Made by a program: the position numbers and the translations under genes. A stretch of DNA of 64,000 nt from Candidatus Latescibacterota bacterium (GTDB taxonomy: Bacteria > Latescibacterota > UBA2968 > GCA-2709665). Under the pieces are notes generated by a model that made no database searches, was not told where the DNA came from, and saw nothing but the letters and a program-made list of their open reading frames with translations. Shown here one piece after another: positions 20,606 through 56,400 of this stretch; positions within the stretch are counted from its first letter, which is position 1, and each line of letters starts with the position of its first letter. The stretch is taken from assembly GCA_965203805.1 (NCBI GenBank), contig OZ241917.1, forward strand, positions 4,512,001-4,576,000, given 5' to 3'.

Positions 20606-20640
20606 GTAGGCCTTGGAGGGAGAACATCCTTCCCAAAATC

Positions 20641-21467: not shown

Positions 21468-21511
21468 CTGTGGATACTGTTTAATCACGTGCTAATGTAG
21501 GGTAGGACACC

Positions 21512-22855: not shown

Positions 22856-26428
<3,573 letters not shown>

Positions 26429-34543: not shown

Positions 34544-35010
34544 TGTGTCGCGTGGTCGACCGGTTGAAAGACGGACTTCCTGAAGGGGCCATCGTTAAGA
34601 GATGCTCGGCCGAGGGGTGCGCTGTTCCGTTGAAAGATGCCCCTGCGCCGCATCTGATTATGGATCTGGATCACCCTTTTTTCCGGCTGAAGGACAAGAT
34701 CCATTGCGATTTTCTGTTTATCAGTTGTGACTGCAATGTTGGATACAACTGGGTTGTTCCTCTGGAACTGAAAGGTGGCAGTCCTGATGCAACAGAAATG
34801 GTATCGCAGCTAATGGCAGGGTCAAATTTCGCGCAAGCCTGGATACCGGAAGATCACAAGATCCAGTTCCGCCCCGTGGGCGTCTTTGGTGGCCGCTTGC
34901 ATAAATTCCAAAGAGACAAGCTTAGAAGGGCTCGCATTTTGTATCGAAGGAAACGGTACGAAGTCAAACTCATACGATGTGGGACGCCGTTAGTTGTTGC
35001 TCTTGCGTAA
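34543..35010 (+). CDS. Hypothetical partner protein, PD-(D/E)XK-like
   Basis: TAATG coupling to ATPase; CDFLF...ELK...QL pattern. Confidence 0.6.
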   Translation: MCRVVDRLKDGLPEGAIVKRCSAEGCAVPLKDAPAPHLIMDLDHPFFRLKDKIHCDFLFISCDCNVGYNWVVPLELKGGSPDATEMVSQLMAGSNFAQAWIPEDHKIQFRPVGVFGGRLHKFQRDKLRRARILYRRKRYEVKLIRCGTPLVVALA

Positions 35011-35021
35011 GAGAAAACCAT

Positions 35022-38838: not shown

Positions 38839-41485
38839 ATGAGCATTTTGCAAAGTCTACGCCGGATTCGTCGGACCGGCCAGCGTGTGAGGAGAGAGGC
38901 TCGAAATTGGGGCCGTGAGTCCATAGGGTTCATCAATCTCAATTGGCGCCATCTTGTGATTTCTGTCACGTTGATGGCTATTTTGTGGATCGGCACCTCG
39001 AGGCTTATAGATATCTGGAACTGGCTAGCCACCGACTTCTGGACTTGGCTGCGAATGGGCTCGAATGGGACCGAAACCCACAGCACGACCCTTCGCAATG
39101 TCGGTTTGCTCTTTGGCGGGGTATTGGCCTTACTGGTTGCGTTGTGGCGCAGTTGGGTAGCAGAGCGGCAAGCCAGAATTGCACAGCGAAATCTATTGAA
39201 CGAACGCTATCGACAAGGTGCCGAAATGCTTGACAGCAAAGTCTTGGCAGTTCGCTTGGGTGGGATCTACGCACTACAGCGTCTCGCAGCGGACAATCCG
39301 AAGAAATATCACATACAAATCATGCAGCTATTGTGTGCATTTGTACGTCATCCACCTGCCGTCGACGGCGAGAAGAATGAACCGTTTGCAGGCAACCAAA
39401 CCGATCTCGAATTGCGCAATGACGTGCAAGATGCCATAAACTCAATCAGCACATGCCATGCGCGACAGACCAAACTGGAGGTTGCAGCGGGCTTTCGACT
39501 AGTGGTCCATTTCGGAAGTATGTATCAGGTTAGGCAGCGATCTTGAGTTCGCGGAGCCTTTCTTCAAGGTCGCATTTGGTGAATCGCCATTTGAAGGGTC
39601 TCGAAGTTTGGTTATAGCGACGCTGAAATCCGAGGATGCGGTCTTCCATTTGCTTTCTGGTTGCGAGGTCGTTGGGCGTGAGCGCCTTTCTTTGAAGGAT
39701 GGAGAAGTAGATCTCGATCTGGTTGAGCCCTGCCTGCGGCAGGCAGGCAGCTTGCGTGGACGGGAAGATGGATGGCGATCAGGTTCGGGTAGGCGTTTTT
39801 GAGTCGTGCAGGGGAGGTCGACGGGTGATGGGAAGGCCCATTGTCGAGGATCCAGAACACGCGTTGTGCCGAAGCATAGGGTTCCTGCTTCATCACGAGG
39901 TCGACCAGCCTCTGAAAGGGTTCGATACCCGTGGTTTGATCCACACGACCAAAGACCCTTCCGCTCCTGATATCGAGTGCGGCCAGGTAGGCCACGGTCC
40001 CGTGGCGCTTGTAGTCGGACTCACAGTGAATCGGTTTTCCCGGTCCCGGAGGTGAAGAAGGGAACTCCCGCTCCAGGATCTGGAGCTGCGATTTCTCGTC
40101 CGCACTGAGAACGTAGTCTTTGGGCCCCAGGGGCGCGCCCTCATAATCCCCTTGATACAGATCCAAAACAGGGCCCGCTTTTTCCAGAAAGCGTGGATCT
40201 TTGATCGAGATCCACGATCGGTGAAACCAGGGACGAATGGCGTCCCGTTTGAGGAGACGCCACAGCGTGCTTTTAGAGATCGACAGGCTTGTCTCGGAAC
40301 GGATTTCCTGAAGCAGTTCCGCGAGGCTGAAGCGGGATAGCGGGATCTCCCGCACGGCTGGCAATTGGCAGGCGATGGCCTTAATTTCAGCGACGCGTTC
40401 GGGGGGGAAAAACCGGAGGCCTTCCACTACGAGGCCGATCCAGCAGTGAAAAACCCTCTGTAGCCCAGCGCTTTCGCCATTTCATCACCGTTCTGGGGTG
40501 CACGCCAACTGCTTGCGCAAGACGCTCGTGCGAGATATCCGGATGCTCCCACAAAACCAAGACCATCTTGGCCCTGTAAACAAGGGCGCTGGGGGCCGTT
40601 CGTTGTCGGGCTATCCTACCCGCTTCCGCGATATCCTGTGTCTCAAACTGCGGTTGATACTTCGGCTTCGGTCCAGGCATCGGTTACCTCCCAACACGGG
40701 CGGGGAGACAACCCTATTATAAGAACGCTACCGGCTACAGACAACATTATACCAATTTCTGAAATCGACCACTAGATCTGCGTGGCGTGAATCTGCGCGG
40801 TGCGGTTTTGCTCAAAGCACGGCTCAGCAAAGCGAATCTATCCAAAGCTGACCTAACCGGGGCGGCGCTAAGCGATGCCGATTTGGCTGGTGCAATCTTT
40901 GGCCACGCGATTTTAAACGATGCACGGCTTAACGGTGCAGACTTAAGCGGTAGCAAATTCAACAATGCACAAATGTGCAGAACCCAACTCCCCGGTGCGA
41001 ACCTGGCTAAATCGGACCTCTCGAACGCAGAACTCGAAGGTGCCCGAGTGTCCGAAGCGAAATTGTCAAAGGCAAACCTCTACAGAGCGAACCTAACCGG
41101 TGCATTCCTCCAGAACTCCGATTTGTCGGAGGCAAGGCTTCAATGCGCGAATTTGACCGCCGCATGGCTATATAATGCTAAGTTGGCAGGGGTGAATCTT
41201 TCAAACGCAATATTAAGCGAAGCGGACTTTAGTGGGTCAGATCTTTTGAATGCGAACCTCTCCAATGCCAATGTGTCCAACACACGGCTTTTCCCATTGC
41301 GACCTACATCGCCCCGAGTAGGCGAGAGACCGATTCGACGAGAGATCCCGACGAAACTCACTCAGGCTCAGCTTGATGTCGCCTGCGCAGAACCTGAGAA
41401 ACCACCAAAGCTGGGTGATGCCGTGGATGCGGAAACTGGCAATCCACTGGTCTGGCGTGGCAAGTCTCTGAACAGGCAAAGGTAG
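38839..41485 (+). pseudogene. Membrane-anchored pentapeptide-repeat protein split by IS630
   Basis: N-part RY..G.EML...VRLGGIYAL.RLA; C-part A(D/N)Lxx repeats; removing the IS restores GFRLDLRGVNL. Confidence 0.88.
39502..40772 (-). mobile_element. IS630-family element (orfA 40387-40680, orfB ending at 39530); transposase disrupted by 19-bp palindrome
   Basis: Imperfect TIRs GTGGTC.ATTTC.GAA; TA (CTAG) at both ends; HTH orfA; DEK, DNG, (W)LNQIE DDE motifs; TTTTTCCCCCCC slippery junction. Confidence 0.9.
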
Positions 41486-41761
41486 ACGTATGAAAGTGCG
41501 CGATCTTTATTGTAGCCTGCGTCTGAGCTTGCAGTGACCCATAATTAAAATAAGTATCTCGTATCAAATGAATGTTTGGATGTCTGGGGATGGCGCGTCT
41601 GGCGACGTTCTCTACATTCTGCACCGAGCCGGTCGCCGCAACGTGTGCTGCACGAACAGTTCGGGTTGTTCGGTGAAGGAACCGACAAGCAATTGAGAAA
41701 AAGACGTAGTCGCTATCGAATTTCGTGCGGCAAATCTACGGGTGAGAAGGGAGAAAAAATC

Positions 41762-44593
41762 GTGACGTCAGATCGAACAAGGAGTTGGCGTTACCCGGGC
41801 GCTCGTTGGTGGAAATTCGACTTCCACACCCACACCCCCGAGTCGAAGGACTATGGTCAAGGACCCAACCAAACAGCCCTAAGGCAGATTAAACCGAAAG
41901 AATGGTTGTTAGCCGTTATGCGTGTTGGCGTAGATTGTGTGGCGATAACGGATCACAACTCGGGCGATTGGACTGACAGGCTTAAAGAGGCACTCCAGGA
42001 ACTAGAGTGTGAATCTCATCCGGATTTTAGACCGCTTTACCTGTTTCCTGGTGTTGAAATTACCGCCAACGGTGGAACCCATATATTGGCGATACTGGAT
42101 ACAAGCAAGTCGTCTGCCGATGTGGCGACGCTTCTTGGCGCAGTTGAGTACCACGGTGAACGCGGCGCTTGTGAAGTCACTGCAAACAAATCGCCAATTG
42201 GCGTCGTCGAAGCTATTGTTGACTTTGGTGGTATTCCAATTTTGGCACATGTGGACGAGCCAAGTGGAGCCTGGAAGCTTAAGGGAAACACGCTTAGCCC
42301 GCTGCTCGAATTCGATGGTTTGTTTGCAATGGAAGTTGTCGATCCGAACGCAAAAAAACCCGCAAAGTACCGACAGATGAAGCTAAAATGGGCAGAAGTT
42401 CTTGGATCGGACTCACACGACCACACCGGTAAGACTGGATCCCGTGTTCTTGGTTCCGACTACACATGGGTAAAGATGGCGGAACCGTCTCTCGAGGGAC
42501 TGCGCCTGGCATTGCTGGACGGCGGTGGGTTTTCAATTCGGCGTAGTGATGATTTGAGTCCTTTCGATCCTTTTAGATTGCCCGATCACTTCGTCGAGGC
42601 TTTGGAAATTGAAGATGCGCAATATATGGGACGAGGCGAATCGGCAAAACTCAGCTTTAGTCCGTGGTTAAACGCTATGGTAGGTGGACGAGGGACGGGA
42701 AAATCAACAGTAATTCATGGAATAAGGCTTGCTTCAAGACGAGAGCAGGAGTTGTCGAAATTTGAAGAAAACTGCGAGCCCCGCTTGATCTTCGAGCAAT
42801 TTAACCGGGTGCCTGGGGACCGCACGGACCGTGGCGGCTTGACAGATTCGACGGAAATCAGGTGGACCGTAATGCGAAACGAAGTTCGGTATCGCGTGCG
42901 TTGGCGGCGCGACGGCTGCGGGACAGTGGTAGAGGAGAACGCAGGCGAAAACTGGGTTCCGTCAAGCATTCAAAGTGTTACGCCCGAGCGCTTTCCAATC
43001 CGGATTTTTAGCCAGGGACAGATTGCGGCGTTGGCCGGCGAGAACCAACAGGCATTGTTGCAGGTGATTGACGATGCCGCTGGAGTGGTTAGGCTACAAA
43101 GGCAACTCAATGATGCTATAAGCGAATTCTATGCGGCGCGGACGCGGATTCGCGAGATGGATGGAAAATTAGTTCGTTGGGACGATCTAAAAGTTGATAT
43201 GCAGGATGTGGAGAGGAAACTGGCTCGTTTTGAGGAAGCCCGCCATGGGGAAGTTCTGACGAGCTACCAACGCCGAAGCCGACAGAAAAGGGAAATGGAA
43301 CGTCAGTTCGAAGCCGCCGATGGCACCGTACGGGTTATTGAAGATACAATTGCTGTGCTGCAATCCGAGGATGTTCCAGACAGGTTGTTCGACACGGATT
43401 CCGACGAAGACCGCGAAGCCATCGCCACCATCGATGCACTGGCTTCCGCAGTCCGCACGGCAGGCGAAACCCTTAAAGGAGCCGCGGAGAGTCTCCGAGT
43501 CGTCATCAACACACAACGGGACGAATTGTCAAAAAGCAAATGGCAGAGGGCTGTAAATCAAATCGTGTCTGAATACAAGCAACTGGTCGAAACACTTCAA
43601 TCGGAGGGTGTCTCCGATCCGAGCGAATACGGCCGACTCGTGCAGGAAAGGCAGCGACTCGATAGCGAAATCGAACTTCTGGAGTCGTTAAGTAAAGAAC
43701 GGGACGAGCTGAATGAGCGATCCCGAACGTTGCTCGGGCACGTACAAGAAGCTCGGCGCGCTGTGAGTGCTGCACGAGAGGACTTCCTTGAAGATGCACT
43801 GGCGCAGAACAACTTTGTAAGAATCCGAAACCTTTCATACGGCGATGACCCCCGTGTTATCGAGGGTGGGTTGCGCGAGGCATTAGGCGTTCTCGACGAT
43901 CGATTTCAGCTTGACATTTTGGATATGGATGACGAGTCGCGGGTGAAAGGAATCGTTGCAGAACTGCTGAATGACTTGCCGGACGAGTCTGCCCAACGCC
44001 GTTCTGAACTGGAACGCCGTATTGACAATCTAAAAGACCGCTTTGACTCTGCTTGTAAGGGTCGCGGAGACTTTGGAGGTCACTTCAACAACTATCTGGC
44101 GCGTGAATTTAACAATAAGCCGGAATTCCTTGACCGATTGCTTGCCTGGTTCCCGGAGGATTCGTTAAGGGTGGAATACAGCCGTCAAGGAGACGGTAGA
44201 GACTTCAGGCCTATTACGCAGGCTTCGTCCGGACAGCGGTCGGCGGCGATGCTGGCATTCCTACTCGCACACGGCGAGGAACCGCTGGTGCTGGACCAGC
44301 CGGAGGACGATTTGGACAATCACTTGATCTATGACCTGGTAGTACGCCAGATCCGCGAAAACAAACTGAGGAGACAAATCACAGTTGTGACACACAACCC
44401 GAACATTGTGGTAAACGGAGATGCCGAGATGTTGCATGCGCTTGAATTTGTGAGCGGACAGTGCATTGTGCAGCAATCTGGGTCTTTGCAGCAGGAGGCC
44501 ATGAGGGAGGAGGTCTGCCGCGTAATGGAGGGCGGGCGCGAAGCGTTCGAGCGCCGCTATCGCAGACTTGGACCGGAGCCAACCCATGTTTGA
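41762..44593 (+). CDS. PHP phosphoesterase fused to ABC ATPase (TrlF/Ppl-like defence protein)
   Basis: DFHTHTP, ITDHN, GVEI, GSDSH; GGRGTGKS, SSGQ, LDQPEDDLDN, THN. Confidence 0.85.
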   Translation: MTSDRTRSWRYPGARWWKFDFHTHTPESKDYGQGPNQTALRQIKPKEWLLAVMRVGVDCVAITDHNSGDWTDRLKEALQELECESHPDFRPLYLFPGVEITANGGTHILAILDTSKSSADVATLLGAVEYHGERGACEVTANKSPIGVVEAIVDFGGIPILAHVDEPSGAWKLKGNTLSPLLEFDGLFAMEVVDPNAKKPAKYRQMKLKWAEVLGSDSHDHTGKTGSRVLGSDYTWVKMAEPSLEGLRLALLDGGGFSIRRSDDLSPFDPFRLPDHFVEALEIEDAQYMGRGESAKLSFSPWLNAMVGGRGTGKSTVIHGIRLASRREQELSKFEENCEPRLIFEQFNRVPGDRTDRGGLTDSTEIRWTVMRNEVRYRVRWRRDGCGTVVEENAGENWVPSSIQSVTPERFPIRIFSQGQIAALAGENQQALLQVIDDAAGVVRLQRQLNDAISEFYAARTRIREMDGKLVRWDDLKVDMQDVERKLARFEEARHGEVLTSYQRRSRQKREMERQFEAADGTVRVIEDTIAVLQSEDVPDRLFDTDSDEDREAIATIDALASAVRTAGETLKGAAESLRVVINTQRDELSKSKWQRAVNQIVSEYKQLVETLQSEGVSDPSEYGRLVQERQRLDSEIELLESLSKERDELNERSRTLLGHVQEARRAVSAAREDFLEDALAQNNFVRIRNLSYGDDPRVIEGGLREALGVLDDRFQLDILDMDDESRVKGIVAELLNDLPDESAQRRSELERRIDNLKDRFDSACKGRGDFGGHFNNYLAREFNNKPEFLDRLLAWFPEDSLRVEYSRQGDGRDFRPITQASSGQRSAAMLAFLLAHGEEPLVLDQPEDDLDNHLIYDLVVRQIRENKLRRQITVVTHNPNIVVNGDAEMLHALEFVSGQCIVQQSGSLQQEAMREEVCRVMEGGREAFERRYRRLGPEPTHV

Positions 44594-45845
44594 TAGTCAA
44601 AAGGAACTGCTTGACAAGATTCAACTGGGCGAAGACACGTTTCTGGAATGCAAGGAGGTCCGGTTTTCGGGAAAACGTGTTTCCGACCCACATCGCGACT
44701 CTCTCGCCGACTCCCTTGCCGCCTTTGCAAACAGCCAGGGAGGAATCTTGGTGATGGGCGTGGAAGATGAATCACGTGAGATCCTGGGTATTCCCCTTGC
44801 ACGTCTCGATCTGGTGGAGCGATTCGTTCATGAGATTTGCCAGGACTCCGTCGATCCACCCCTTTCGCCGACTATAGAACGGCTAAGGCTGCCAGCGACC
44901 ATCGGAGAGGAGGTAGCGGTCATCAAGATAGATGTGCGCCCCAGTCTGTTTGTGCATCGAAGTCCGGGTGGTTACCTGCATCGAGTCGGAAGCGCCAAAC
45001 GGGTTATGCCCTCTGACTTTCTGGCTCGTCTATTTCAACACCGTAGTCAGATTAGCGTCATTCGCTTTGATGATCAGGCGGTTCCTCAAGCCGAACTGGA
45101 CGACTTGAACGATGATTTGTGGCAGCGGTTTTTAACTTCCCGGTCGCGCAATCAGCGCGACGACTTTCTTTTTAAGCTGGGCATGGCGCGAATGGAATCC
45201 AACGGCTCGATCCGTCCAACGGTAGCGGGCGTCCTGATGGCAGCCCGTGATTCCCGGACTTGGCTGCCTAATGCCTACATTCAGGCTGTCGCCTATCGGG
45301 GCGAGCAAATCCGAGTGGAGCAATCGGGTGACCCGTATCAGATTGATGCTGCCGATATCTACGGTCCGTTGGATACCCAGGTTACCGATGCCTGTCGATT
45401 CGTAATTAAGAATATGAAAACAGCCGCAGATAAGGAACTAGGGAGGCGTGACCGCCCGCAGTTCGACATTACGGCAGTTTTTGAGGCATTGGTCAATGCA
45501 GTCGCCCATCGTGATTACTCCATTCACGGCTCCAAGATCCGACTCAGGATATTTTCCAACCGGCTAGAATTGTATTCACCTGGGGCGCTACCAAATACGT
45601 TGACAGTCGAAAGTCTCCCATACAGACAGTCAGCTCGCAATGACGCGATATGCAGCCTGCTCGCCCGATGTACAGTGCCCGCAGACGTGCCCTGGCTTGT
45701 CACCGACCGTGAAACGCTTATGGACAAGCGGGGCGAAGGCGTGCGCATTATCTATGACAATAGTGAAACGCTTTCGGGACGATTACCTGAATACAGTTTG
45801 ATCGACGATAGTGAGTTGCGGCTCGTAATCTGGGCCGCGAAATAG
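44586..45845 (+). CDS. AlbA_2/Schlafen domain plus HATPase_c_4 (RecG C-terminal-like) protein
   Basis: GED..LECK, AFANS.GG.L..GV.D, EALVNAVAHRDY, SPG.L. Confidence 0.85.
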   Translation: MFDSQKELLDKIQLGEDTFLECKEVRFSGKRVSDPHRDSLADSLAAFANSQGGILVMGVEDESREILGIPLARLDLVERFVHEICQDSVDPPLSPTIERLRLPATIGEEVAVIKIDVRPSLFVHRSPGGYLHRVGSAKRVMPSDFLARLFQHRSQISVIRFDDQAVPQAELDDLNDDLWQRFLTSRSRNQRDDFLFKLGMARMESNGSIRPTVAGVLMAARDSRTWLPNAYIQAVAYRGEQIRVEQSGDPYQIDAADIYGPLDTQVTDACRFVIKNMKTAADKELGRRDRPQFDITAVFEALVNAVAHRDYSIHGSKIRLRIFSNRLELYSPGALPNTLTVESLPYRQSARNDAICSLLARCTVPADVPWLVTDRETLMDKRGEGVRIIYDNSETLSGRLPEYSLIDDSELRLVIWAAK

Positions 45846-45889
45846 CTCGTTGGCTCGCAGGCGACGTTGATTTCCGATGAATCAATCCA

Positions 45890-46327
45890 ATGAATATCTC
45901 AACCATCGGCTTTACGAGAAAGCCCGCAAGCCGTTTCTTCGGCTTGCTGATGCAGTCAGGCGCAAGGCGCGTCGTCGACGTTCGGCTAAACAACGCGTCG
46001 CAATTGGCCGGCTTTGCGAAGAAGGACGACCTGGCGTATTTCCTGCGGGAACTCTGTGGGATGGACTCCATCCATCTGCCCGAATTGGCGCCGACGAAGG
46101 AATTGCTGGACGATTACAGGAAACGGCGGTTTGACTGGGAGACCTGCGAGAACCGTTTCAACGGGCTGATGTGCGAGCGGCGGATCGAGGAGACGGTTCC
46201 GATTGAGATCGTCGCGGATGGTTGTCTGCTGTGCAGCAAGGATAAGCCGCACCGCTGCCATAGGCGGCTCGTGGCCGAGTATCTGAAACACCATTGGGGC
46301 GACGTGGAAATCGTCTACCTCGGATAG
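45890..46327 (+). CDS. DUF488 family protein
   Basis: TIGFT, VDVRL, LAPT, LLC....P..CHRR. Confidence 0.85.
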   Translation: MNISTIGFTRKPASRFFGLLMQSGARRVVDVRLNNASQLAGFAKKDDLAYFLRELCGMDSIHLPELAPTKELLDDYRKRRFDWETCENRFNGLMCERRIEETVPIEIVADGCLLCSKDKPHRCHRRLVAEYLKHHWGDVEIVYLG

Positions 46328-46337
46328 TTGGTTAAGC

Positions 46338-46663
46338 ATGGATGTGCCGGCCTCGGAGACATTCATACCGATCATGGTAGACCGAATTGTAGAAGGCTTC
46401 CAGCCTTCTCGGCTCGTTCTCTTCGGTCCCATGCACATGGCACGGCCACCGACACAAGTGACGTAGACTTGCTGGTAATTCTGCCCAATGGGTCTGACAA
46501 GCGGGATACGGCTATCGAGGTCCGCCGCGCCCTGGGAGATCTCCCGGTTTGCAAGGAAATAGTGATTGCCACTCCCGGGGAAGTCACTCGTCGCGGTCAT
46601 CTTGTTGGTACCTTGTTGCGTTCAGCACTCCGCGAAGGAAAGGTACTGTATGAGCGATCCTGA
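46338..46663 (+). pseudogene. Minimal nucleotidyltransferase (MNT), frameshifted at LFGS
   Basis: Paralog of 49691-50029; 1-nt loss at TTCGGTCCCATG; SDVDLLV in the shifted frame. Confidence 0.8.
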
Positions 46664-46760
46664 ACACGTTGACCGAACTCGCCGATGGCTTCGTTTCGCC
46701 ATGGAGGATCTCGACGTTGCCCAATGCTTGCTGGCGACGGATGGCTCACGACCTCGCCCT
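46650..46760 (+). pseudogene. HEPN toxin N-terminal fragment
   Basis: RRWL.FA.EDL..A..LL; similarity ends at a REP-like sequence (46758). Confidence 0.65.
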
Positions 46761-46907
46761 GGAAGCGCGGACGTCTCGCTCACATGTCCCGTAGAATCCA
46801 CCGACTTTGGCGATTTTGTCTTAAGATTGTGACAGACACATTACCAATATTCGCCTCCCTATTTCGCTACTCCAACACGGTCACTCTCAAAAGAAGGTAC
46901 GGACGCC

Positions 46908-48044
46908 ATGTCTGAAGAACGCCCGGGCACCTGCCTGCATCTTCCGGATCTGTCGATAACCGGATTTCGGGGAATCGCGTCGCTAACCATTAAGCGGTTG
47001 GGTCGCGTTACGCTGCTTGCGGGAAAGAACAGCGTCGGCAAGACAACCGTTTTGGATGCCGTCCGGGTCTACGCGGCGCGCGGTCGCCCTTTCATTCTGT
47101 CCGACGTGTTGAAGAGCCACGAAGAGGTGGCTGCCGCTACGTATCGCGGTGACAAAGAGGGAATTGACCCTCATCTGGAGGCGCTCTTCCACGGACGGGA
47201 CGCTTCCGGGGAGGCGTCCTTCTCGATCGGCCCGGATAACGGTTGGGACCAGCTTAGAGTTGAAGCGATTCCCCCAGATAAAGCCACTCGTCCTAGTCAT
47301 GGACATCCCCCCGATTTTTTCGTGGCGCCAACAAGATTGCTTAAAATCGTCAGTCAAGACACTGAGCAGATAATTCCCTGGTATTTCTCTCCCTATGCGT
47401 TGAGTACCAAATTGGCCAAAAGTCGCCGTATATATCAGTATCTCTTGAATACGTCTGCAGATTACGACCTACCAGCCGCAATCGACTGCCGGTCCATGGG
47501 TCCGGCCCTGTTGAGCAAGGACGAAGTCGTGGTCTTTTGGGATGACATCGCGCTGACCGACGATGAGGAATGGGTGGTCAATTCCCTGCAGCCTGTTCTC
47601 GGCGACCAGGTACAGCGCATTGGGACAATCGGAGATAACAGTAACGGACGACGGGTGATCGCCAGAGTCCGGGGGCAGTCCTTTCCGGTCCCTCTCGAAA
47701 GCTTTGGTGATGGGGCCCTGCGCCTGTTCGGCACTGCCCTGATGCTGGTCAACAGCCGGGACGGCTTCCTGCTCATCGACGAAGCGGAAAACGGCATTCA
47801 CCATACCGTCCAACGCGATTTCTGGCGCATGGTACTTGAGACCGCGGACCAAAACAACGTGCAGGTTCTCGCGACAACGCACAGCTATGACTGTGTGCGA
47901 GGTTTTGCGCAGGCGGTTAACGAATGCGAGGGAATCGACGGGGGGCTTGTGCGTCTCGAACGTAGCGACAGGGAAATGTGGGCAGTTGAGTATTCGGAAG
48001 ATGATCTCAAGGTCGTTGCTGATCAACACATTGAAGTGAGGTAA
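46908..48044 (+). CDS. ABC-type (AAA_21) ATPase
   Basis: FRGI, GKNSVGKT, FGDG, IDEAENGIH, TTHS; ends EVR. Confidence 0.88.
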   Translation: MSEERPGTCLHLPDLSITGFRGIASLTIKRLGRVTLLAGKNSVGKTTVLDAVRVYAARGRPFILSDVLKSHEEVAAATYRGDKEGIDPHLEALFHGRDASGEASFSIGPDNGWDQLRVEAIPPDKATRPSHGHPPDFFVAPTRLLKIVSQDTEQIIPWYFSPYALSTKLAKSRRIYQYLLNTSADYDLPAAIDCRSMGPALLSKDEVVVFWDDIALTDDEEWVVNSLQPVLGDQVQRIGTIGDNSNGRRVIARVRGQSFPVPLESFGDGALRLFGTALMLVNSRDGFLLIDEAENGIHHTVQRDFWRMVLETADQNNVQVLATTHSYDCVRGFAQAVNECEGIDGGLVRLERSDREMWAVEYSEDDLKVVADQHIEVR

Positions 48045-48045
48045 A

Positions 48046-48663
48046 TTGATGGATAATGGTGACCGTGTCCTGCTTGTTGAAGGACAAGCCGACAAGCACG
48101 TCGTCTCACATCTATGCTCAAGATTTCAGCCAATGCCCCAATTCCATATAGAAGATAAGGGCGGTATCCAAAAGCTCTTTGATTCGATTATTCAGGAAGC
48201 CAGAGTTTCCGACCGCAAAGCCCTCGGTATTCTCTTAGACGTAATCGACGATTTGAACGCCCGATGGAGTGCCGTGACTGATCGGCTTCAAAAAGAGAAT
48301 ATCGAGGTTCCTCGTACCCCTGAACCAACCGGTACCTTAATCGACGGCACCGTCCGTACCCCTCGAGTTGGCATCTGGTTGATGCCCGACAATTCATCAC
48401 CCGGCGAACTCGAAGACTTCGTTGCGGAAATGGTTCCAGACGATGATCCAATATGGCCGCGAGCCCGCCGTTACATCGACTGCATTCCAGAGGCGGATCG
48501 TAAGTTTACTGAGAAAAAGATACAGCGAGCCAGGATCCACGCCTGGTTAGCGACTAGAAAGGAACCCAGGAAGATTGGCACCGCCATTTATACGGGAGAT
48601 TTGCGCGTTGATGGAAGACTCAGCACAGAATTCGCGGAGTGGCTAAGGGAATTGTTTAAATGA
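48046..48663 (+). CDS. DUF3226-type (TOPRIM-like) partner protein
   Basis: LLVEG..D, GIWLMPDN.SPGELEDF, WLA. Confidence 0.75.
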   Translation: MMDNGDRVLLVEGQADKHVVSHLCSRFQPMPQFHIEDKGGIQKLFDSIIQEARVSDRKALGILLDVIDDLNARWSAVTDRLQKENIEVPRTPEPTGTLIDGTVRTPRVGIWLMPDNSSPGELEDFVAEMVPDDDPIWPRARRYIDCIPEADRKFTEKKIQRARIHAWLATRKEPRKIGTAIYTGDLRVDGRLSTEFAEWLRELFK

Positions 48664-48667
48664 GCGA

Positions 48668-49501
48668 ATGGAAGATATTTTGACTCCTGCTGAACAAATC
48701 GCAAAGGACACCTGGGAACGATTGAAACAGTCACGCGAACTCCAGACCCGGTTGGGAGAGGTAACCCTTACTGATTTGCTCGTTTTGGATTTCGTGCGTT
48801 TCATGGATGGTCGCGCCAGGTTATTTCAAAGTACCAACAAACAGGAATCGAAACGGGGGACCGATCTCGAGATCCGGATTCACGCCGGATGCAATCGAGC
48901 CGTCGCGTTTGCACTGCAAGCCAAGAAGCTGTATCCAGATGAAGGGTATCGTGAATTAAAGACCACGGTGAAGTCATCGAACTCTCTTCAATTGGACATA
49001 CTTGAGGATTATGCTGAATCAGTGTGCGCTGTCCCACTCTATCTACTGTACAACTACGTGTGCTGGGATGATTTACAGCCATATTGGCATTGCCGTGAGC
49101 GCCTCAACGTAGACATCGAACAACTGGGTTGTACCGTGGTACCAAGTCGGATAATTCGGCGTGCGATTTGTAAACGCGGACGCAGGAACTTCGAGTGGAT
49201 CCACAGATCCAACCATGTATTGCCGTGGCGTTGTCTTTTCAACTGCCCGCACCAATGCACGCAGCGCTATGACAGCGAGTACATTGAACCAGTTGATGGC
49301 GGGTGGCCTGACTGGCTTTGGTCTCGAAATAGCACGACGTTTTCTGACGAAGACGTGGACAGATTGCGTGAGGAGATTTCAAACCGAGAGATATCGAGGC
49401 GGAAATTGGAACAGTCCGATATTCCAGACGGATTTGGACATACCGACGAGATTGGCGAACTGCCAAGTTACCTCATCTTGGTCAAGGAGAAGACCGGATA
49501 A
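48668..49501 (+). CDS. DUF6615-like putative nuclease
   Basis: GE.TLTD, E...G.D.E, LQAKKL, PLYLLYN. Confidence 0.65.
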   Translation: MEDILTPAEQIAKDTWERLKQSRELQTRLGEVTLTDLLVLDFVRFMDGRARLFQSTNKQESKRGTDLEIRIHAGCNRAVAFALQAKKLYPDEGYRELKTTVKSSNSLQLDILEDYAESVCAVPLYLLYNYVCWDDLQPYWHCRERLNVDIEQLGCTVVPSRIIRRAICKRGRRNFEWIHRSNHVLPWRCLFNCPHQCTQRYDSEYIEPVDGGWPDWLWSRNSTTFSDEDVDRLREEISNREISRRKLEQSDIPDGFGHTDEIGELPSYLILVKEKTG

Positions 49502-49565
49502 ACAGATCGAATGTAGCACGACGCTAATCCCGCGGTGCCTCGGCAACCGTTCCGAACAAACTACT

Positions 49566-49731
49566 CGCGGACGGTTGTCTGCTGTGCAGCGAAGATAAAC
49601 CGCACCACTGCCGTAGGCGGCTCGTGGCCGAATATCTAAAACACCATTGGGGCGACGTGGAAATCGCCCACCTCGGATAGTGGGTTAAGCATGGATGTGC
49701 CGGTCTCGGAGACATTCATACCGATCATGGT
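49566..49731 (+). repeat. Direct repeat of DUF488 3' end plus MNT 5' end (copy of ~46213-46378)
   Basis: Near-identical stretch GGTTGTCTGCTGTGCAGC...CATACCGATCATGGT. Confidence 0.9.
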
Positions 49732-50029
49732 CGATCGGATCGTCTCGCGGTTCACACCCTATCGCGTGATTCTGTTCGGATCGCATGCACGTGAAAGGGC
49801 CGGCAAGTGGAGCGATATAGACTTCCTCGTGGTGTTGCCGAACGGCACTGATCGACGTCACGCGGCTGTTGAAATTTATCGGGCGCTGGGAGATTTGCCC
49901 GTGGCCAAAGACATTGTCGTGACCACGCCAGAGGAGATCGAACGTCGCGGTCACGTCGTCGGTGGTGTGCTGTACGAAGCGCTTCGTAATGGAAAAACCA
50001 TCTATGAACGACCCCGTGCGCCTTCGTGA
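49691..50029 (+). CDS. Minimal nucleotidyltransferase (MNT antitoxin-like)
   Basis: LFGSHAR...SDIDFLVV. Confidence 0.85.
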   Translation: MDVPVSETFIPIMVDRIVSRFTPYRVILFGSHARERAGKWSDIDFLVVLPNGTDRRHAAVEIYRALGDLPVAKDIVVTTPEEIERRGHVVGGVLYEALRNGKTIYERPRAPS

Positions 50030-50235
50030 AGCGCGTCGCTTGTTTCATTTCGAGACGGGAGATCTCGTTTTCGGACAACGCTTCTTGTCGGCCAACGGCG
50101 CTTGACGTCGGCACACCCGATCCGTCGTCTAACAAATTGACAGATCGCCAATATCCGTCAGCGGTACTACGACGCGAACTTCGAGACCCAGGACATCCCG
50201 CATTTGATAGCGAGCTCGGTATCTATTTCGAATGA
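50004..50235 (+). pseudogene. Decayed HEPN gene
   Basis: MNDP...ARR...F...DL parallels the 46650 fragment; premature stop. Confidence 0.45.
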
Positions 50236-50456
50236 ACTGTGTCAGAGGAGCGATTGCATTGTGACAAGCGATGACACAAATTTCGGCGCAATGCCCGAAA
50301 CAAGGAAATTCAACGAGCTTGCTTCGCGCGAAGCGTTGCTTATCTGGACTATGGATTGCACGCAACTACTGTGAAGTTCTGTCAGGCGTGACCTCAAACG
50401 TCGGCTTCACCAGGAGACCTTGCCGCCTTGTCTTTGACAGATAGGGGAATTGAACC

Positions 50457-51632
50457 ATGCAAATTGAGCAGATTGAGATCAAAAACTACCGTCCCTTCCG
50501 CCACGCGGTCCTCGGAGCTCTGCCGCGCATGGTCGTAGTTGTCGGTGCAAACGGCTCGGGCAAATCAACGCTCTATGATGTATTCAGCTTTCTAAAGGAT
50601 GCGCTGACCCAAAATGTAGCCACGGCGGTCGCCAGGCGAGGCGGATTCCAGGAGCTTGTCAGTCGTGGAGAAAACGGCCCGATCGGTATTACGATTAAAT
50701 TTCGAGAGAAAGGCGGGCGGCTGGCCACATATGTCCTTCAAGTGGCCGAAGATAGTGGACGTGTCGTCGTCCACCGCGAGATTCTACGCTACCGGCGGGG
50801 GCAGTATGGAAAGCCCTGGCATTTCGTTGATTTTTCGCGCGGTACGGGAACTGCGATCACAAATGAGTCCGTGTACGGCCAAAAAGGCGTCGTCGAAGAA
50901 CGGGAAGAGTATGAGCTCGACGATCCAAGCATCCTGGCGATAAAGGGTTTGGGCCAATTCCGTGAATTCCGTGTTGTATCGGAGTATCGTAGCCTGGTTG
51001 AGAACTGGCACGTGTCGAATTTCCACATTGCCGACGCCCGGCCGAGTGTCGACGCTGGCTTCGCCGAACATCTGTCCAGCCGAGGTGACAATGTCGCCCA
51101 AGTCGCCCACTATCTTTACGAGAATCACCGCGACTCGTTCGACCGAATTCTAAGGGCGATGAGTCACCGCGTTCCAGGTGTTAGTAGAGTAGAAGCCAAA
51201 CCCACGGAGGACGGACGTCTGGTTTTACGCTTTCAGGATGGAAGCTTCAAGGATCCATTCATCGCCCGCTACGTCTCCGACGGCACCATAAAGATGTTTG
51301 CATATCTCGTAATGCTCTATGACCCCAGACCTCATCCCTTGTTGGCAGTCGAAAAACCTGAAAACCAACTGTACCCCGAGCTGTTGGTTGAGCTAGCTGA
51401 GGAGTTTCGCGACTACGCCCAGCGAGGAGGTCAAGTGTTTATTTCAACACACTCACCTGATTTCCTGAACGGTGTGGAACTCGAAGAGATCTTCTATTTG
51501 GTCAAGAAAAACGGCTTCACGACTGTGCGCCGAGCATCCGAGAGCGAGTTGCTACGCAACCTCGTCGACGAAGGGGATTTACCAGGTTCTCTCTGGAAGC
51601 AAAGGCTGTTTGAGGGAGTCGGACTACAATGA
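50457..51632 (+). CDS. ABC-type (AAA_21) ATPase
   Basis: NYR, GANGSGKS, SDGT, E(K)PENQLYP, STHS. Confidence 0.88.
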   Translation: MQIEQIEIKNYRPFRHAVLGALPRMVVVVGANGSGKSTLYDVFSFLKDALTQNVATAVARRGGFQELVSRGENGPIGITIKFREKGGRLATYVLQVAEDSGRVVVHREILRYRRGQYGKPWHFVDFSRGTGTAITNESVYGQKGVVEEREEYELDDPSILAIKGLGQFREFRVVSEYRSLVENWHVSNFHIADARPSVDAGFAEHLSSRGDNVAQVAHYLYENHRDSFDRILRAMSHRVPGVSRVEAKPTEDGRLVLRFQDGSFKDPFIARYVSDGTIKMFAYLVMLYDPRPHPLLAVEKPENQLYPELLVELAEEFRDYAQRGGQVFISTHSPDFLNGVELEEIFYLVKKNGFTTVRRASESELLRNLVDEGDLPGSLWKQRLFEGVGLQ

Positions 51633-53475
51633 GGCACATTGTTTTCCTTCTGGAGGAGTTCTCAATGGGCGGCTTTCTGGATGTCTTGCTGCCGAGAATT
51701 TTTCCGGATCTGTCCTTTCAGTGCGTGCCCCACGAGGGTAAACAAGACCTTGAGAAGAGTATCCCTCGCAAATTAAGGGCGTGGCGCGAGCCGGGTGTAC
51801 ATTTCTGCGTGATTCGGGATAACGATAGTGGCGATTGTCACGCACTGAAGGAAAGGCTTATCGCACTATGCGAGTCGGGCGGCCGGGATGACACCTTGAT
51901 CCGCATCGCTTGCCAAGAGTTGGAGGCCTGGTATCTGGGAGAACCGGATGCAATCGCGGAGGCGTTCGCTAACGACAAGCTGCGGATGATCGGAAAAAAA
52001 GCGCGATTTCGCGATCCAGACGCCGTCGTCAGACCATCTGCCGAAGTCCGAAAGCTCGTACCTGAATTCCAAAAGGTTTCGGGTGCTCGCCGCATTGCCT
52101 GCTATTTGACCCGCGACAGGAATAGGTCGGCTAGTTTCCGAAATCTTCTAGTACCCAATGACGGCTAAAGAGCCTCGTAGTCTGGATACAGTTTTTTCAG
52201 TTTGATGCGAGCATCGTTGGTCGTGAACCGCCAATTGACAGCCTTGCTTTTGTTGTTGCGGTCGTTTGTCCAGGCGGAGACCTGCTCTTTGAGGGATTCG
52301 ATATCGGGGATGCGTTCCTTCAAGCATTGGTTGCTCAAGACGCTCATTTCGATCTCGGCAATGTTGAGCCAGCTTCCGTGTTTGGGCGTGTAGTGGATTT
52401 CGAGACGCCTGGCCAGACGGCGCGCCTCTTCGGGTGGGAACGCCTTGTAGAGTGCCGCCTGCCTGCCGGCAGGCAGGCGGGCGTGTGCGTGTTGAGGTTA
52501 TCACACACCAACACGACGGTTTCAGCTTTTGGGTAGTCCGTATTCAGGAGATCCTTGATCTCCTGGGCCCAGTCCAGTGCGGTCTTGCGTTGTCTTACAC
52601 ACACCTTGCGCCAGCCCGAAAGCGGTTCGGTGAACATGAAGTTCACGGCGGTTCCGTTCCGTTCATACTCGTAGTCGTAGCGTTCAGGTTGGCCCCGACG
52701 TGTTGTGAGGGGAACACGCGTCTCCTTGACCAACTGCACCGGGTGTTCGTCCATATTGACCACGGGCCTCAAGGCGTCGTAGGGCCGCTGATAGACGTCC
52801 AGGATATCCTCCATCGCGGCGACAAACGCGGCGTTCTGCTTGGGCGGAATCACCCAGCACCTTCTCAGGTGAGGCTTAAGTTTGTTTTTTTTAGCGTCCG
52901 TTGCACCGTTCGATAGGAGATGCTATCGACGATCTCTAAAGCCACGAGTTCATCGGCTAAAAGCTTCAGCGTCCACCGCTTACGTCCCTTTGGAGGTTCA
53001 CTGCAAGCCAACGCGATCAATCGGGCTTCCTTCGCACCATCGAGCTTTCTTGGTGTGGGAGGATGCGCGCGCTTCTTTCGCTCGAGGGCCGAATCCAGGC
53101 CCTCCAGCACATAACGCTTCCGGATGTTCTCGACCGTTGACCGATTGAACGAAAAGGCCTCCGTGATCTGTCGATCCAACCAGGACGGACCCTCTGCATC
53201 GGCCTTGAGAAGCACGTGGGCGTGCCTGATTCGGAAGGCTTGTGTCTTGCCTTTGCTTACCAGATCCTGCAGTTGCTCGCGTTCTTCGGGACTCAGACGG
53301 ACAATGTATTTCTTCGGCATGCCGATGGCTCCTTTGTCTTCAGGGGAGACATCGAACTATAAGCACGTGCAGTCTTAGAAGTCAATAGGTACTAGACGGA
53401 ATCGAGCAATTATGGCAAGATTGCCTTTTCGAGAGTGAGTGTCGTCCATCAACCTTCGATGAGGGAAAGGGATAA
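51629..53475 (+). pseudogene. DUF4276-type (TOPRIM-like) partner with 3' end displaced by IS630
   Basis: LEE.S, EGK.DL, RDND, ELEAWYLG, NRS.SF; without the IS the frame continues LLDGIEQLW...GKG* overlapping the DUF499 ATG. Confidence 0.8.
52151..53392 (-). mobile_element. IS630-family element (orfA 52865-53320, orfB ending at 52165); transposase disrupted by 20-bp palindrome
   Basis: Imperfect TIRs GTACC.A.TGAC; TA (CTAG) at both ends; MDE, DNLNTH, SWLNIAEIE motifs; A-run frameshift site. Confidence 0.9.
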
Positions 53476-56400
53476 TGGCCGTTACCAACCGTGAACGCGT
53501 CGAAAAGGCGCTCGATCTATTGAAGGCGGGATTGGGTCCATTCGTCGATCGCGAAGTCAAAAGTGCATTCAAAGCAAAGCGATTGGACCAATACGGCTTC
53601 CACCATTATCAGGATGACGCAAAACTCAAAGGCAAGCCCGTTACCGAGTGGGATGCGGCCGCTTTGTTGAAGTTGATGTGGTCCACGTGGAACGACGTGT
53701 TCAAGTATACGCTCGGGCATATCGAACGTAGTCTCGTCTCCGAACTTCGCGACTGGCGCAATAAATGGGCGCACCAGGAACACTTTTCGAGCGACGATAC
53801 GGACCGGACCCTCGACTCCGCGGAGCGGCTGCTTACAGCGGTTTCGGCATCCCAGGCGGACCAGGTCAATCGAATGAAGGTGGAACTTCGCCGTCTGGTA
53901 TTTGACGAACAGGTCCGGGGGGAACAACGCAAGGCGGGGGCGCTTGTCGAGTCCCCGGGCGCACGCGCGTTGAAACCCTGGCGCGAGGTGGCAATGCCGC
54001 ACAAGGACGTCGCTACGGGCGGGTACCAGCAGGCGGAGTTCGCAGCGGATTTATGGCAGGTTCATCTTGGAGAGGGTTCGGACGAGTATCGCGACCCACA
54101 GGAGTTCTTCCGCCGCACGTATCTCACAGAAAGCCTGAGACGTCTGCTGGAAGGAGCGGCGAGACGTCTGGCAGGTACGGGAGGCGACCCGGTGGTGCAG
54201 TTGCAGACCAACTTCGGCGGCGGCAAAACGCACTCGATGTTGGCGCTTTACCATCTTTTTTCCGGAATAGCGTCCGGAGAGCTCGAGGGCATGGACGAGG
54301 TGCTGGCGGGCGCTGCGGTCGAAACGCCCCCGTCCGTACGGCGCGTGGTGCTGGTTGGAAACCGAATCTCACCGGGGAATCCAGTGGAAAAATCGGACGG
54401 CACGGTGGTGCGTACGTTGTGGGGCGAACTTGCGTACCAGCTTGGCGGTCGCGATGCGTTCGAGCGCCTCCGCGCGGATGACGAGAAGGCCACAAATCCT
54501 GGCGATACGCTGCGGGAATTGTTCAACGACTACGGACCTTGCGTGGTGCTCATCGATGAGTGGGTGTCATACGCGCGGCAACTGCACGATGAAGGCGACC
54601 TGCCCGGCGGCAGTTTCGAGACGCAGTTCACGTTCGCGCAGGCCCTCACCGAGTCGGTAAAACTCACGGGCAACTGCCTGCTGGTGATTTCGCTGCCGGC
54701 TTCGGACACGTCGGATTCGGGTTCGCCGCATACGGAGGCTGACGATGCGGAGGTGGGCGGTATTCGGGGCCGAAGCGCCCTCGAACGCTTGCGAAATGTA
54801 CTCGGGCGTGTGGATTCGCCCTGGCGTCCGGCGAGCGCCGAGGAAAGCTTTGAAATCGTACGGCGCAGGCTGTTCGAGCCGCTCGCGGGGACGGACGCCT
54901 TTAAGCAGCGCGATGTGACCGCGCGCGCTTTCGCGGATCTTTATCGCGTACAGCACGGGAATTTTCCGGCTGAGTGCCGCGCCATGGATTATCAGAAGCG
55001 CATGATGGCCGCGTACCCTATCCATCCCGAGATATTCGACAGGCTTTACACGGACTGGTCCGCGCTCGCCAGGTTCCAACGGACTCGCGGCGTTTTGCGA
55101 CTGATGGCCACGGTCATCCACAGTCTTTGGGAGAGTGGCGACCGAAATCCACTCATTCTGCCGTCCACCATACCCATTGACGATCAGCGGGTGCAGAATG
55201 AACTGACGCGGTATCTGCCCGAGAATTGGACGCCCGTTATCGAAAAAGACGTTGACGGTCCGGGCGCATTGCCGCTCAGGATCGACGCCGAAGTACCGCA
55301 TCTCGGGAAGCTTTCTGCTGCAAGGCGCGTGGCACGTACGGTCTATATCGGATCGGCGCCGACCCGTGCGGCGGCTCAGCGGGGTATCGACGACGCGCGG
55401 GTCAAACTGGGTTGCGCCATGCCGGGGGAGACGCCAGCGGTTTTTACGGACGCGCTTCGCCGGCTTGCGACGGCGGCAACCTATCTGTACCAGGACGGAC
55501 CGCGCGTGTGGTACGACACGCAACCGACGGTTACCAAGCTGGCCGAAGACCGCGCCGAGCAGTTGAGGACCCATCCCGACGAGGTGGCGGGCGAACTGGA
55601 AAAGCGACTCGAATCGGACTTGCGCACGGCCGGAGATTTCGAGCGTATCCACTCACTCCCCCGTTCGGGGGCGGACGTGCCCGACGATCTGGACGCGCGG
55701 CTGGTCGTGCTATCAGCGGAGCAACCGTATTCGAGAGAGCCGGACAACGTAGCGGAAGCCGCCGCAAAAGAGATCCTGGAGATGCGCGGCAACACGCCGC
55801 GGCTTTACCGGAATACGCTGGTTTTCCTCGCGGTGGACAAAGTGCGGTGGCAGGATATGGATGAAGCGCTTCGCAAGTATCTGGCGTGGAAGTCGATTGT
55901 CGAAGACAGGGTCGAACTCAATCTGGATCCGCATCAAGGCCGCCAGGCCGAGACTCAAAGGAATGCAGCTGACGACACCGTGACCGCTAGACTGCCAGAG
56001 GCGTATCAATGGCTGCTTGTGCCCGAGCAGTCCGACCCGCAGGCGGCGATGTCATGGAATGCGATCCGTCTGACGGCGTCTGGAGGGCTCGCCGAACGGG
56101 CTTCGAAGCGTCTGCGCAGCGACGAGATGCTGGTAATGGGGCTCGGTGCGAGTGTGCTGCGCAAGCATCTGGACGATGTGCCACTCTGGCGTGGCGATCA
56201 TGTCGAGGTACGGCAACTCGTTCGGGATTTTGGTCAGTTTCTCTACCTGCCGCGCCTGGCTGGGCCGGATGTGCTAATGCGCGCTATAGAGAACGGCGTG
56301 AATACCACTGACTGGAAAATGTACGGCTGCGCTGTTGCGGAGAGTTACGACGATAGCGAGAGCCGCTATATTGGGCTCCGGCACGCCGAAACGCTCAGTG

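Follow-up and report, generated by a model that had tools for sequence, protein, structure and literature searches.

Two tiny palindromes in IS630-like transposase genes of a Latescibacterota genome are probably the smallest members of a lineage-restricted family of hairpin micro-repeats

Introduction

Why should two different transposase genes, lying in one stretch of a bacterial genome, be broken by almost the same tiny palindrome? The question is raised by 64,000 nucleotides (nt) of DNA from Candidatus Latescibacterota bacterium (assembly GCA_965203805.1, contig OZ241917.1, positions 4,512,001 to 4,576,000), hereafter the window, in which two IS630-like insertion sequences (IS) hold a 19-nt and a 20-nt palindrome inside their transposase genes. 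An initial annotation had regarded the palindromes as micro-elements deposited preferentially in mobile DNA, possibly as an anti-transposon mechanism driven by a nearby REP-associated tyrosine transposase (RAYT; REP, repetitive extragenic palindromic sequence), and had offered random insertion, tolerated only in dispensable genes, as the alternative. The analysis reported here leans towards that alternative: the two palindromes probably belong, as its smallest members, to a family of REP-like hairpin micro-repeats that is spread over the genome, restricted to a lineage and retained where it is tolerated. Positions are those of the window unless they are called genome positions; G000 denotes this genome (5.87 Mb), G001 its sister genome, and the comparison set consisted of 31 related genomes.

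Two palindromes interrupt two IS630-like transposase genes

39729-39747: 19-nt palindrome CCTGCCTGCGGCAGGCAGG, read as a minimal member of the CCTGCCTG hairpin family, inside IS630-like element 1
39530-40680, minus strand: coding region of IS630-like element 1, with HTH_29/HTH_23 and DDE_3 (Pfam)
52458-52477: 20-nt perfect palindrome CCTGCCTGCCGGCAGGCAGG, read as a minimal family member, inside IS630-like element 2
52165-53320, minus strand: coding region of IS630-like element 2, with HTH and DDE_3 (Pfam)

The shorter palindrome, with arms of 9 bp around a centre of 1 nt, interrupts the Trp codon of ...HASWLNQIE... in element 1 and is predicted to fold, as single-stranded DNA, at -9.8 kcal/mol. 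The longer one is placed behind ...DNLNTHTP of element 2 at a G^C junction (the caret marking the point of insertion), with a predicted fold of -16 kcal/mol (z -3.99). The pattern CCTGCCTGC-N0-3-GCAGGCAGG has these two matches in the window and none in 100 dinucleotide-preserving shuffles. On the translations, if the IS630 motifs DNxxxH ... WLNxxE are taken as the guide, both sites lie past the second Asp but ahead of the Glu in the catalytic Asp-Asp-Glu (DDE) triad.

Both host genes encode a DDE_3-type catalytic domain preceded by a helix-turn-helix (HTH), the arrangement of the IS630 family, and HTH_29/HTH_23/HTH_32 domains were found in the OrfA of each. In element 1, which is a single copy without a paralogue in the genome, OrfA (40387-40680) is followed by the N-terminal part of OrfB (39612-40427), which is cut off at the palindrome, while the C-terminal remainder runs in a different frame as far as 39530. 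Element 2 has the same layout, with OrfA at 52865-53320, the N-terminal part of OrfB at 52344-52853, again cut off at the palindrome, and a C-terminal part in a different frame reaching 52165. The Pfam DDE_3 match ends at both palindromes, reaching position 117 of the 146-position profile in element 1 and position 94 in element 2, the two OrfB parts scoring E values of 1.8e-5 (a broken gene, below the curated cut-off) and 9.3e-8; an intact relative of element 1, L002, covers profile positions 23-145 with an E value of 1.5e-13. Since the overlap of OrfA and OrfB in element 1 is equally present in L002, the 19-mer is the only visible lesion in that gene. The reading frame switches at the palindrome in both genes, and, judged from the sequence, both transposase genes are inactivated as encoded, their frame being shifted by the insert. 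What the initial annotation had said of the positions, the frame change and the split transposases is thereby confirmed.

Adjoining element 1, at 40787-41485 on the plus strand, is a 232-aa open reading frame (ORF) of pentapeptide-type repeats (ANLSKADLTGA...), recognized from its translation only.

Empty sites in related elements

Empty counterparts of both sites exist in related genomes. Four relatives of element 1 from two of these genomes (L001, L002, L003 and L008), with 90-93% protein identity, read CACGCAAGCT joined directly to GGCTCAACC, without the 19 nt and without any target duplication, and no hairpin was found in any of the relatives of element 1 in other genomes (L001-L080). Copies of element 2 that are 90% identical and 20 nt shorter occur in G013 (five) and G003 (four); when aligned, a representative locus from each ran from GTAGAGTGCC straight into GCGGGCG, again lacking the 20 nt and any target duplication. 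It had been claimed that the insertions are clean, that their removal restores the frame and that no target is duplicated, and the empty sites bear this out for both elements.

Could the palindromes have been produced by assembly or sequencing at hairpin-forming sites? The genome is one long contig from an assembly of metagenome type, and basecalling can be disturbed by palindromes. Sequencing runs X3-X6 were consulted as assembled contigs rather than reads, in which stretches without cover are uninformative. An independent contig of run X3 contains the 19-mer with no difference across 39621-39811, and at 39729 exactly 19 nt are missing from a 1060-nt contig that belongs to another study (run X4); with one run holding the insert and the other the empty allele, an assembly artefact is excluded. 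The same insert is moreover present in five copies of another IS, and the family to which it is assigned recurs in 18 of the 31 related genomes, so that the probability of an artefact is negligible. Because other IS630 relatives share the WLN region, a large number of contigs end at 39729. Coral, sponge and marine metagenome runs contain parts of 39300-40700, much of which is conserved IS630 core, and offer a mere hint of the habitat.

A genome-wide family of nested hairpins

A genome-wide search for the palindrome, as the initial annotation had suggested, returned 15 exact 19/20-mers, all but one of them in repeated DNA, and then a family of about 262 hairpins. The family was counted with an outer stem of CCTG(C/T)CTG ... 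CAG(G/A)CAGG and an inner part of at most 30 nt, by iterative excision. This census gave 262 elements, which form 226 blocks and comprise 94 different sequences, with lengths of 19-45 nt, mostly 27-36 nt (chiefly 33, 31, 30, 27 and 36), which agrees with the 20-40-nt palindromes at high copy number that characterize REPs. Thirty-five members are nested and became visible only once an inner element had been excised. Composites are formed by a hairpin in the tip of another hairpin, in the loop of a second, GTAG-tagged type of REP, or in a repeat resembling a MITE (miniature inverted-repeat transposable element). Two matches, at genome positions 3455127 and 1693540, look like chance matches of the loose pattern.

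Two longer members lie in the window.

22124-22156: 33-nt family member in the loop of a REP hairpin, directly 3' of the stop codon of a free-standing RAYT-like gene
35652-35678: 27-nt family member translated in frame (9 aa, PACALHADR) in a 1235-aa DUF1156-like ORF, in the loop of a REP-like hairpin that precedes an embedded RAYT-like domain

The claim that no other gene holds a full copy is accordingly right for the exact 19/20-mers in the window and wrong for the family, whose member at 35652-35678 is in frame in an ORF.

Across the comparison set, the family pattern is present in 18 of the 31 genomes, at 0 to 191 copies, and the exact short form in seven, whereas a reversed control pattern gave no match in any genome except G016 (one per strand). 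One 36-mer, which is found here in an IS5-like element, recurs in G011, G013 and G015 at 94-100% identity. Rfam, at its gathering threshold, had no match in the whole window.

Inverted arms of this kind might also be the tips left by excision of a larger transposon with terminal inverted repeats starting CCTGCCTGC. A palindromic form, a variable length and the absence of duplication would suit some types of excision footprint, but solitary half-sites number 722 against 670 for reversed control motifs, a control level at which a larger element ending in hairpin arms was rejected. No larger element family starts with the arm, the commonest extension (8 copies) being internal to an IS; moreover, the inner sequences are conserved between genomes and the elements are nested in one another. 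An origin as footprints is thus highly improbable.

Precise junctions at G^C and deletions between hairpins

When occupied copies were compared with empty paralogues, 86 of 138 comparisons showed gap-free junctions; the gaps in the remaining 52 stem mostly from overshoot of the search pattern by flanking CCTG or from divergent MITE subfamilies. Merging of paralogous flanks left 84 independent target sites, at 46 of which the junction is G^C. After symmetrisation, G precedes the junction (-1) in 71% and C follows it (+1) in 71%, and the flanks from -10 to -2 and from +2 to +10 show no conserved motif over the 84 sites. Beyond the G^C pair, the targets are no more palindromic around their centre than random G^C sites. 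The loops of REPs are often occupied, at least four REPs being filled according to a strict pattern, as against 29 intact ones. Comparisons of paralogues thus join the IS630 elements and two further IS families, A and C, in upholding the view that the palindromes are inserted micro-elements, placed precisely and without duplication.

Some copies of these IS have lost the DNA between two hairpin sites. One copy of family A is without the stretch between its 33-mer and 19-mer sites, and in the two paralogues of IS630-like element 2 (genome 1663337-1664502 and 2176012-2177470) about 88 nt between the THTP and WLN sites are gone. The deletion junction of both paralogues is marked by one 19-nt palindrome, the same form is present in G001, and the right junction is the very site used in element 1, GTTGAGC^CAGCTT. 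Two hairpins in one element, as these sequences suggest, can recombine and delete the stretch between them, which was seen twice. As to whether other IS copies are hit at the same position, the relatives of element 1 are empty (L001-L080), as are the copies of element 2 in G013 and G003, and the deletion paralogues of element 2 carry a single 19-mer at the deletion junction. Inside one of these derivatives lies a 289-bp repeat (genome 2176318-2176606), probably a MITE, of which five further copies with 97.6-100% identity were found.

Genomic context of the insertions

The initial annotation had expected mobile DNA to be preferred. Repeat classes were defined by self-comparison of the hairpin-free genome, in which an IS-like class (with a paralogue of at least 600 bp) makes up 3.5% of the bases and repeats that are short only make up 1.8%. 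The 84 sites fall into unique DNA (32), short MITE/REP-like repeats (20), IS-like DNA (20) and other hairpins in which they are nested (12). Three corrections were made by hand: one double-counted family A site and one deletion junction were dropped, and the single-copy element 1 was reassigned to the IS class. IS-like DNA then has 19 of the 70 non-nested events, an enrichment of 7.8-fold; short repeats are enriched about 15-fold and unique DNA stands at 0.45-fold, all of these figures being approximate, as over-splitting of MITE sites remains.

Several kinds of IS are involved. The IS1380-like family A (8 copies; Pfam DDE_Tnp_1_4) has inserts of 21, 21, 33 and 19 nt at four sites, each of which is cleanly absent from some copies, and Pfam confirms transposases in families A, B and C, in L166 and in L168/L172, among them a Mu-C-like ORF and DUF772-type ORFs. 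In the sister genome the picture is different. There, 50 of the 64 short palindromes were examined, and 46 lie at MITE/REP-like sites (34 at one MITE site, 12 at other MITE/REP-loop sites that are also used in G000), one in the deletion form of element 2, a transposase remnant, and three in unclassified DNA.

Ordinary genes are hit as well. Two such inserts were verified against orthologues, and the candidates L087, L090 and L170 were left out. In a conserved TolC-like efflux gene, one and the same nucleotide is occupied by a nested insert of 60 nt in G000 and by an insert of 30 nt in G007, while the site is empty in G001, G003, G004, G005, G006 and G010 (G002 and G009 aligned on one side only). 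In the DUF1156 ORF, the 27-nt insert accounts for 9 aa that the homologues of G008, G011 (two) and G016 lack. All hairpins found inside ordinary, non-IS genes have a length that is a multiple of three, and frameshifting 19- and 20-mers within reading frames were found in IS genes only. Several further candidates within long ORFs proved to be antisense or upstream artefacts; the site at dnaE falls upstream of the PHP domain, and a 20-mer at genome position 529646 is found on the 5' edge of a glycosyltransferase-4 ORF and probably precedes the start of that ORF.

These distributions bear on the proposal of a dedicated anti-transposon device, in which a host or selfish enzyme would put the palindrome preferentially into transposase genes. 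It could draw on the roughly 8-fold enrichment in IS-like DNA, on the number of IS lineages struck, at least six (two IS630-like, two IS1380-like, IS5-like, DUF772/IS1182-like and Mu-C-like), and on the bias of short forms towards IS in G000. The site GTTGAGC^CAGCTT was used both in element 1 and in the ancestor of the deletion form of element 2, and two RAYT-like genes lie at most 31 kb from the two palindromes. Nevertheless, short MITE/REP-like repeats are more enriched than IS-like DNA, 32 of the 84 sites are in unique DNA, in-frame copies sit in ordinary genes, and a transposase remnant accounts for only one of the 50 short copies examined in G001. Neither a target motif beyond G^C, nor a palindromic context, nor a clear co-occurrence with Y1 genes was found, and an IS5-like family described below made at least four new copies after a frameshifting insert. 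A dedicated device is therefore quite improbable. The expected preference for mobile DNA survives as an enrichment per base and is not supported as a specificity, and it is the other possibility, of insertion kept only where it is tolerated, that fits best, frameshifting lengths within reading frames having been seen in IS genes only and the hairpins of ordinary genes all being in frame.

An insertion sequence that kept spreading

Genome 1308656-1309965 and four other copies: IS5-like family C, 1310 bp, with three hairpin inserts in each copy

A case that bears on the effect on transposition is family C, whose inserts of 27, 19 and 36 nt are all absent from the homologous IS of G002 and G013; at the 27-nt site, comparison with the homologues shows a plain 27-nt insert without duplication. 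The five copies are 99.8-100% identical and all hold a frameshifting 19-mer between DVESMR and FAGVN, no intact copy is present in the genome, and each is flanked by its own 4-5-nt direct repeat. As each 19-mer-bearing copy has a direct repeat of its own, at least four transpositions must have followed the frameshifting insert. This continued spread speaks against an effective anti-transposon mechanism; it might be explained by a transposase supplied in trans from a copy that was later lost, by gene conversion, by exact excision or by bypass.

Exact excision and bypass belong to a wider proposal, namely that the hairpins are reversible or bypassed interrupters, precisely excised as DNA or skipped at the level of RNA or translation, so that the transposases would be conditionally active. 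Besides the five interrupted copies of family C with their own direct repeats and no intact sister, this would suit the scar-free mode of insertion, since exact loss would restore the gene, and the TolC-like site, which is filled in G000 and G007 and empty in closer relatives. But no ordinary gene was found to hold a frameshifting hairpin, as expected if the hairpins are simply translated, and a since-lost copy acting in trans, or gene conversion, is the simpler account of family C. Such interrupters are accordingly considered very unlikely.

RAYT-like genes and the enzyme question

21512-22117, plus strand: free-standing RAYT-like (Y1_Tnp) gene, 201 aa, a candidate enzyme only
34977-38684, plus strand: 1235-aa ORF with DUF1156, a weak D12 methyltransferase match and an embedded Y1_Tnp domain (residues 332-408), a candidate enzyme only

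These are the only two Y1_Tnp matches in the 5.87-Mb genome, and both lie in the window, so that RAYT-like genes are indeed encoded near the palindromes. The free-standing gene is flanked by units resembling REPINs (REP doublets forming hairpins) that contain the GTAG-tagged hairpin GTAGGGCAGGGATGCCCTCG. At least five REPIN-like units, with 24-nt inverted arms about 102 nt apart, surround it at 20600-22800, and intact GTAG hairpins of the GTAGGGCAGGGATGCCCTCG type number about 29 genome-wide, against 262 CCTG hairpins (as the present family may be called from its outer stem).

On both sides of the RAYT-like domain, which is embedded in frame, stand inverted REP-like hairpins that are also translated. 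The combination of DUF1156 with a RAYT-like domain at the same position recurs in G008, G011 (as two paralogues) and G016, which belongs to another genus and whose homologue has a second RAYT-like domain embedded further downstream; the ORF looks like a conserved fusion or a domesticated REPtron in a defence-type gene. Large ORFs lie around this methyltransferase-like gene, namely a helicase-like ORF (1190 aa, 22856-26428), an ATPase-like ORF (510 aa, 33011-34543) and one of 1107 aa (53475-56798), and from the translations the region has the look of a defence island in which IS and REP elements are scattered.

Several observations weigh against the reading of the palindromes as members of a tolerated, REP-like family. 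The short forms are more biased towards IS than the long forms in G000 (9 of 15 versus 10 of 55, Fisher p 0.003), which tolerance alone does not predict, although this bias does not hold in the sister genome. If about 10% of the genome is non-coding, IS-like DNA may hold about twice as many events per base as unique non-coding DNA. Gain of a hairpin and its precise loss are indistinguishable at the MITE sites. The orientation of asymmetric hairpin types shows no bias with respect to replication direction, as given by cumulative GC skew (Fisher p 0.26-0.47 over all copies, with small numbers and tiny ones for singletons).

The remaining difficulties concern the enzyme. REPs that flank both RAYT-like genes are of the different, GTAG-tagged type, and the CCTG hairpins sit in their loops; a REPtron or REPIN-RAYT system has its repeats as doublets, inverted, on either side of the RAYT gene, and the CCTG hairpins are not so placed. 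Of 18 Y1/RAYT-like loci in relatives, 13 were without a CCTG hairpin in the surrounding DNA that was retrieved. Y1 matches occur in 20 of the 31 related genomes, and across the 31 genomes hairpin abundance and Y1/RAYT matches do not go together: in G015, 140 hairpins stand beside IS200-type Y1 matches only, G012 has 20 hairpins and no Y1 match, and G017 has 32 IS200-type Y1 matches and no hairpin. RAYT-like matches are present in the hairpin-rich G000, G001, G011 and G016 and absent from G015 and G012, these being kin genomes, some of them fragmented, and G013 and G008 combine such matches with a small number of hairpins. The hairpin family is tied to no enzyme. No clear co-occurrence with RAYT, which had been put forward as a check, emerges from these counts; of the idea that a RAYT is the driver, the proximity of the two genes is borne out.

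Proposed route of insertion and the origin of the short forms

Family copies enter DNA precisely, without target duplication and with a preference for G^C, as the junctions show, and on the preferred reading two such insertions fell in two different IS630-like transposase genes, shifting the frame between the second Asp and the Glu. Frameshifting copies would then be kept only in IS genes, ordinary genes keeping in-frame copies, as the distribution suggests; the loss of a transposase would be no burden to the host, which would explain why frameshifting 19-20-nt forms occur in the coding sequence of IS genes alone. Most copies are intergenic or in other repeats.

Scar-free insertion of hairpins is the chemistry of HUH/Y1 enzymes, as in IS200/IS605 and TnpA_REP. 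By analogy with REPs, the likeliest chemistry for the CCTG hairpins may be a single-strand cut-and-join by a HUH/Y1 (RAYT-like) enzyme at the foot of the hairpin. This suggestion, to which the lack of duplication and the hairpin form alone have led, is a tentative and rather doubtful one.

How the short forms arose is a separate matter. The 19A, 19G and 20-mer forms, of which the two 19-mers differ only in their centre base, each correspond to an abundant 33-nt type minus 13-14 inner nt, that is, to one internal deletion. They may move as such, or they may arise by collapse of longer inserts in place, and both may hold. In the case of collapse, 27-36-nt hairpins, once inserted, would have lost their inner stem-loop through the instability of palindromes. 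The MITE site acggcgttg^cgctccctcc points this way: in G000, where 10 of 30 paralogues compared have a hairpin within 300 nt, it holds 33-mers (8 cluster members), and in G001 it holds 19-mers (34 of the 50 examined) with either A or G as the centre base. On the other hand, identical 19- and 20-mers are found at three, two and three independent sites in G000, which would rarely be expected from random collapse, and a long intermediate was seen at no IS630 site. Collapse is a serious possibility, though held less likely than not.

A bolder and unlikely proposal is that the 19-36-nt hairpin itself would be the smallest known transposable unit, inserted without a scar at G^C by a single-strand enzyme, exactly excisable and thus a reversible off-switch. 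If this were true, reversible switching would explain the spread of family C in spite of the frameshifting 19-mer in every copy, and exact excision would explain why the TolC-like site is filled in two non-sister genomes and empty in between.

Relation to known palindromic elements

In the literature searched, neither this family of hairpins nor REP-like repeats from Latescibacterota were found to be described. The closest known elements are REPs, bacterial interspersed mosaic elements (BIMEs) and REPINs, together with the Y1 transposases RAYT (TnpA_REP) (Nunvar 2010, PMC2817692; Bertels & Rainey 2011, PMC3116915; Di Nocera 2013, PMC3733652; Corneloup 2021, PMC8266576). Di Nocera et al. (PMC3733652) report in-frame REPs inside genes of Opitutus terrae and Rickettsia conorii, as well as a CGTC-type superfamily of REPs without an associated transposase gene. 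Like REPs, the CCTG hairpins are small, GC-rich palindromes that occur at high copy number, are confined to a lineage and are sometimes in frame, with RAYT-like genes in the same genome; like CGTC-type REPs as described there, they are without an associated transposase gene. They differ from REPs in lacking a GTAG or CGTC tetranucleotide at the stem end (GTAG is the tag of the second REP type found in this genome), their flanks being simply the target, and in not being the repeats that flank the RAYT-like genes here. In contrast to REPINs, their copies are single hairpins, often nested, rather than regularly spaced inverted doublets, although doublet spacing was not formally analysed. Finally, they include forms down to 19-21 nt, and many copies lie inside transposase genes, some of which are frameshifted.

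Other comparisons are looser. In heterocyst-forming cyanobacteria, Elhai et al. reportedly described in 2008 small dispersed repeats (SDRs) of 21-27 nt, some of them hairpins, which are nested in each other and in MITE-like elements; the SDRs are said to be present in one and absent from the other of otherwise matching sequences, and to have no known enzyme. In their tiny size, nesting and residence in MITEs, the CCTG hairpins would resemble SDRs. They belong to another phylum and have another sequence, and their unit is one palindrome with a constant outer stem; they show a G^C target and have frameshifted transposases.

Mobile GC clusters and 'byp' elements of yeast mitochondria are very short, GC-rich palindromic inserts in coding sequence. 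Byps are organellar and are skipped by the ribosome, whereas there is no evidence of skipping for the CCTG hairpins. Rickettsia palindromic elements (RPEs) are about 100-150 bp long and belong to an obligate intracellular lineage, and neither nesting nor insertion into IS is their hallmark. Both RPEs and CCTG hairpins are palindromic repeats that lie in frame in protein-coding genes and are translated, but the latter are far shorter (19-45 nt), nested and present in IS genes. RPEs are among the elements mentioned in PMC3733652.

MITEs mobilized by DDE transposases have terminal inverted repeats and a target-site duplication, and no duplication was found at any junction checked. Palindrome-associated transposable elements (PATEs), which derive from IS200/IS605, have distinct subterminal hairpins at their two ends and insert 3' of a fixed target of 4-5 nt. 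The unit described here is a single hairpin, with G^C as its only preference.

Significance

If truly mobile, the family would extend REP-like elements down to 19 nt. It is unusually clean material, with scar-free inserts and matching empty sites, nesting, in-frame copies and frameshifted transposases. For annotation, the inserts account for transposases that look 'frameshifted' and for odd peptides of low complexity (PACA...HADR, LPA...AQAG) in the proteins of this lineage. A side effect on genome evolution is the silent decay of insertion sequences; another is that hairpin-to-hairpin deletions turn full IS copies into internally deleted, MITE-like derivatives.

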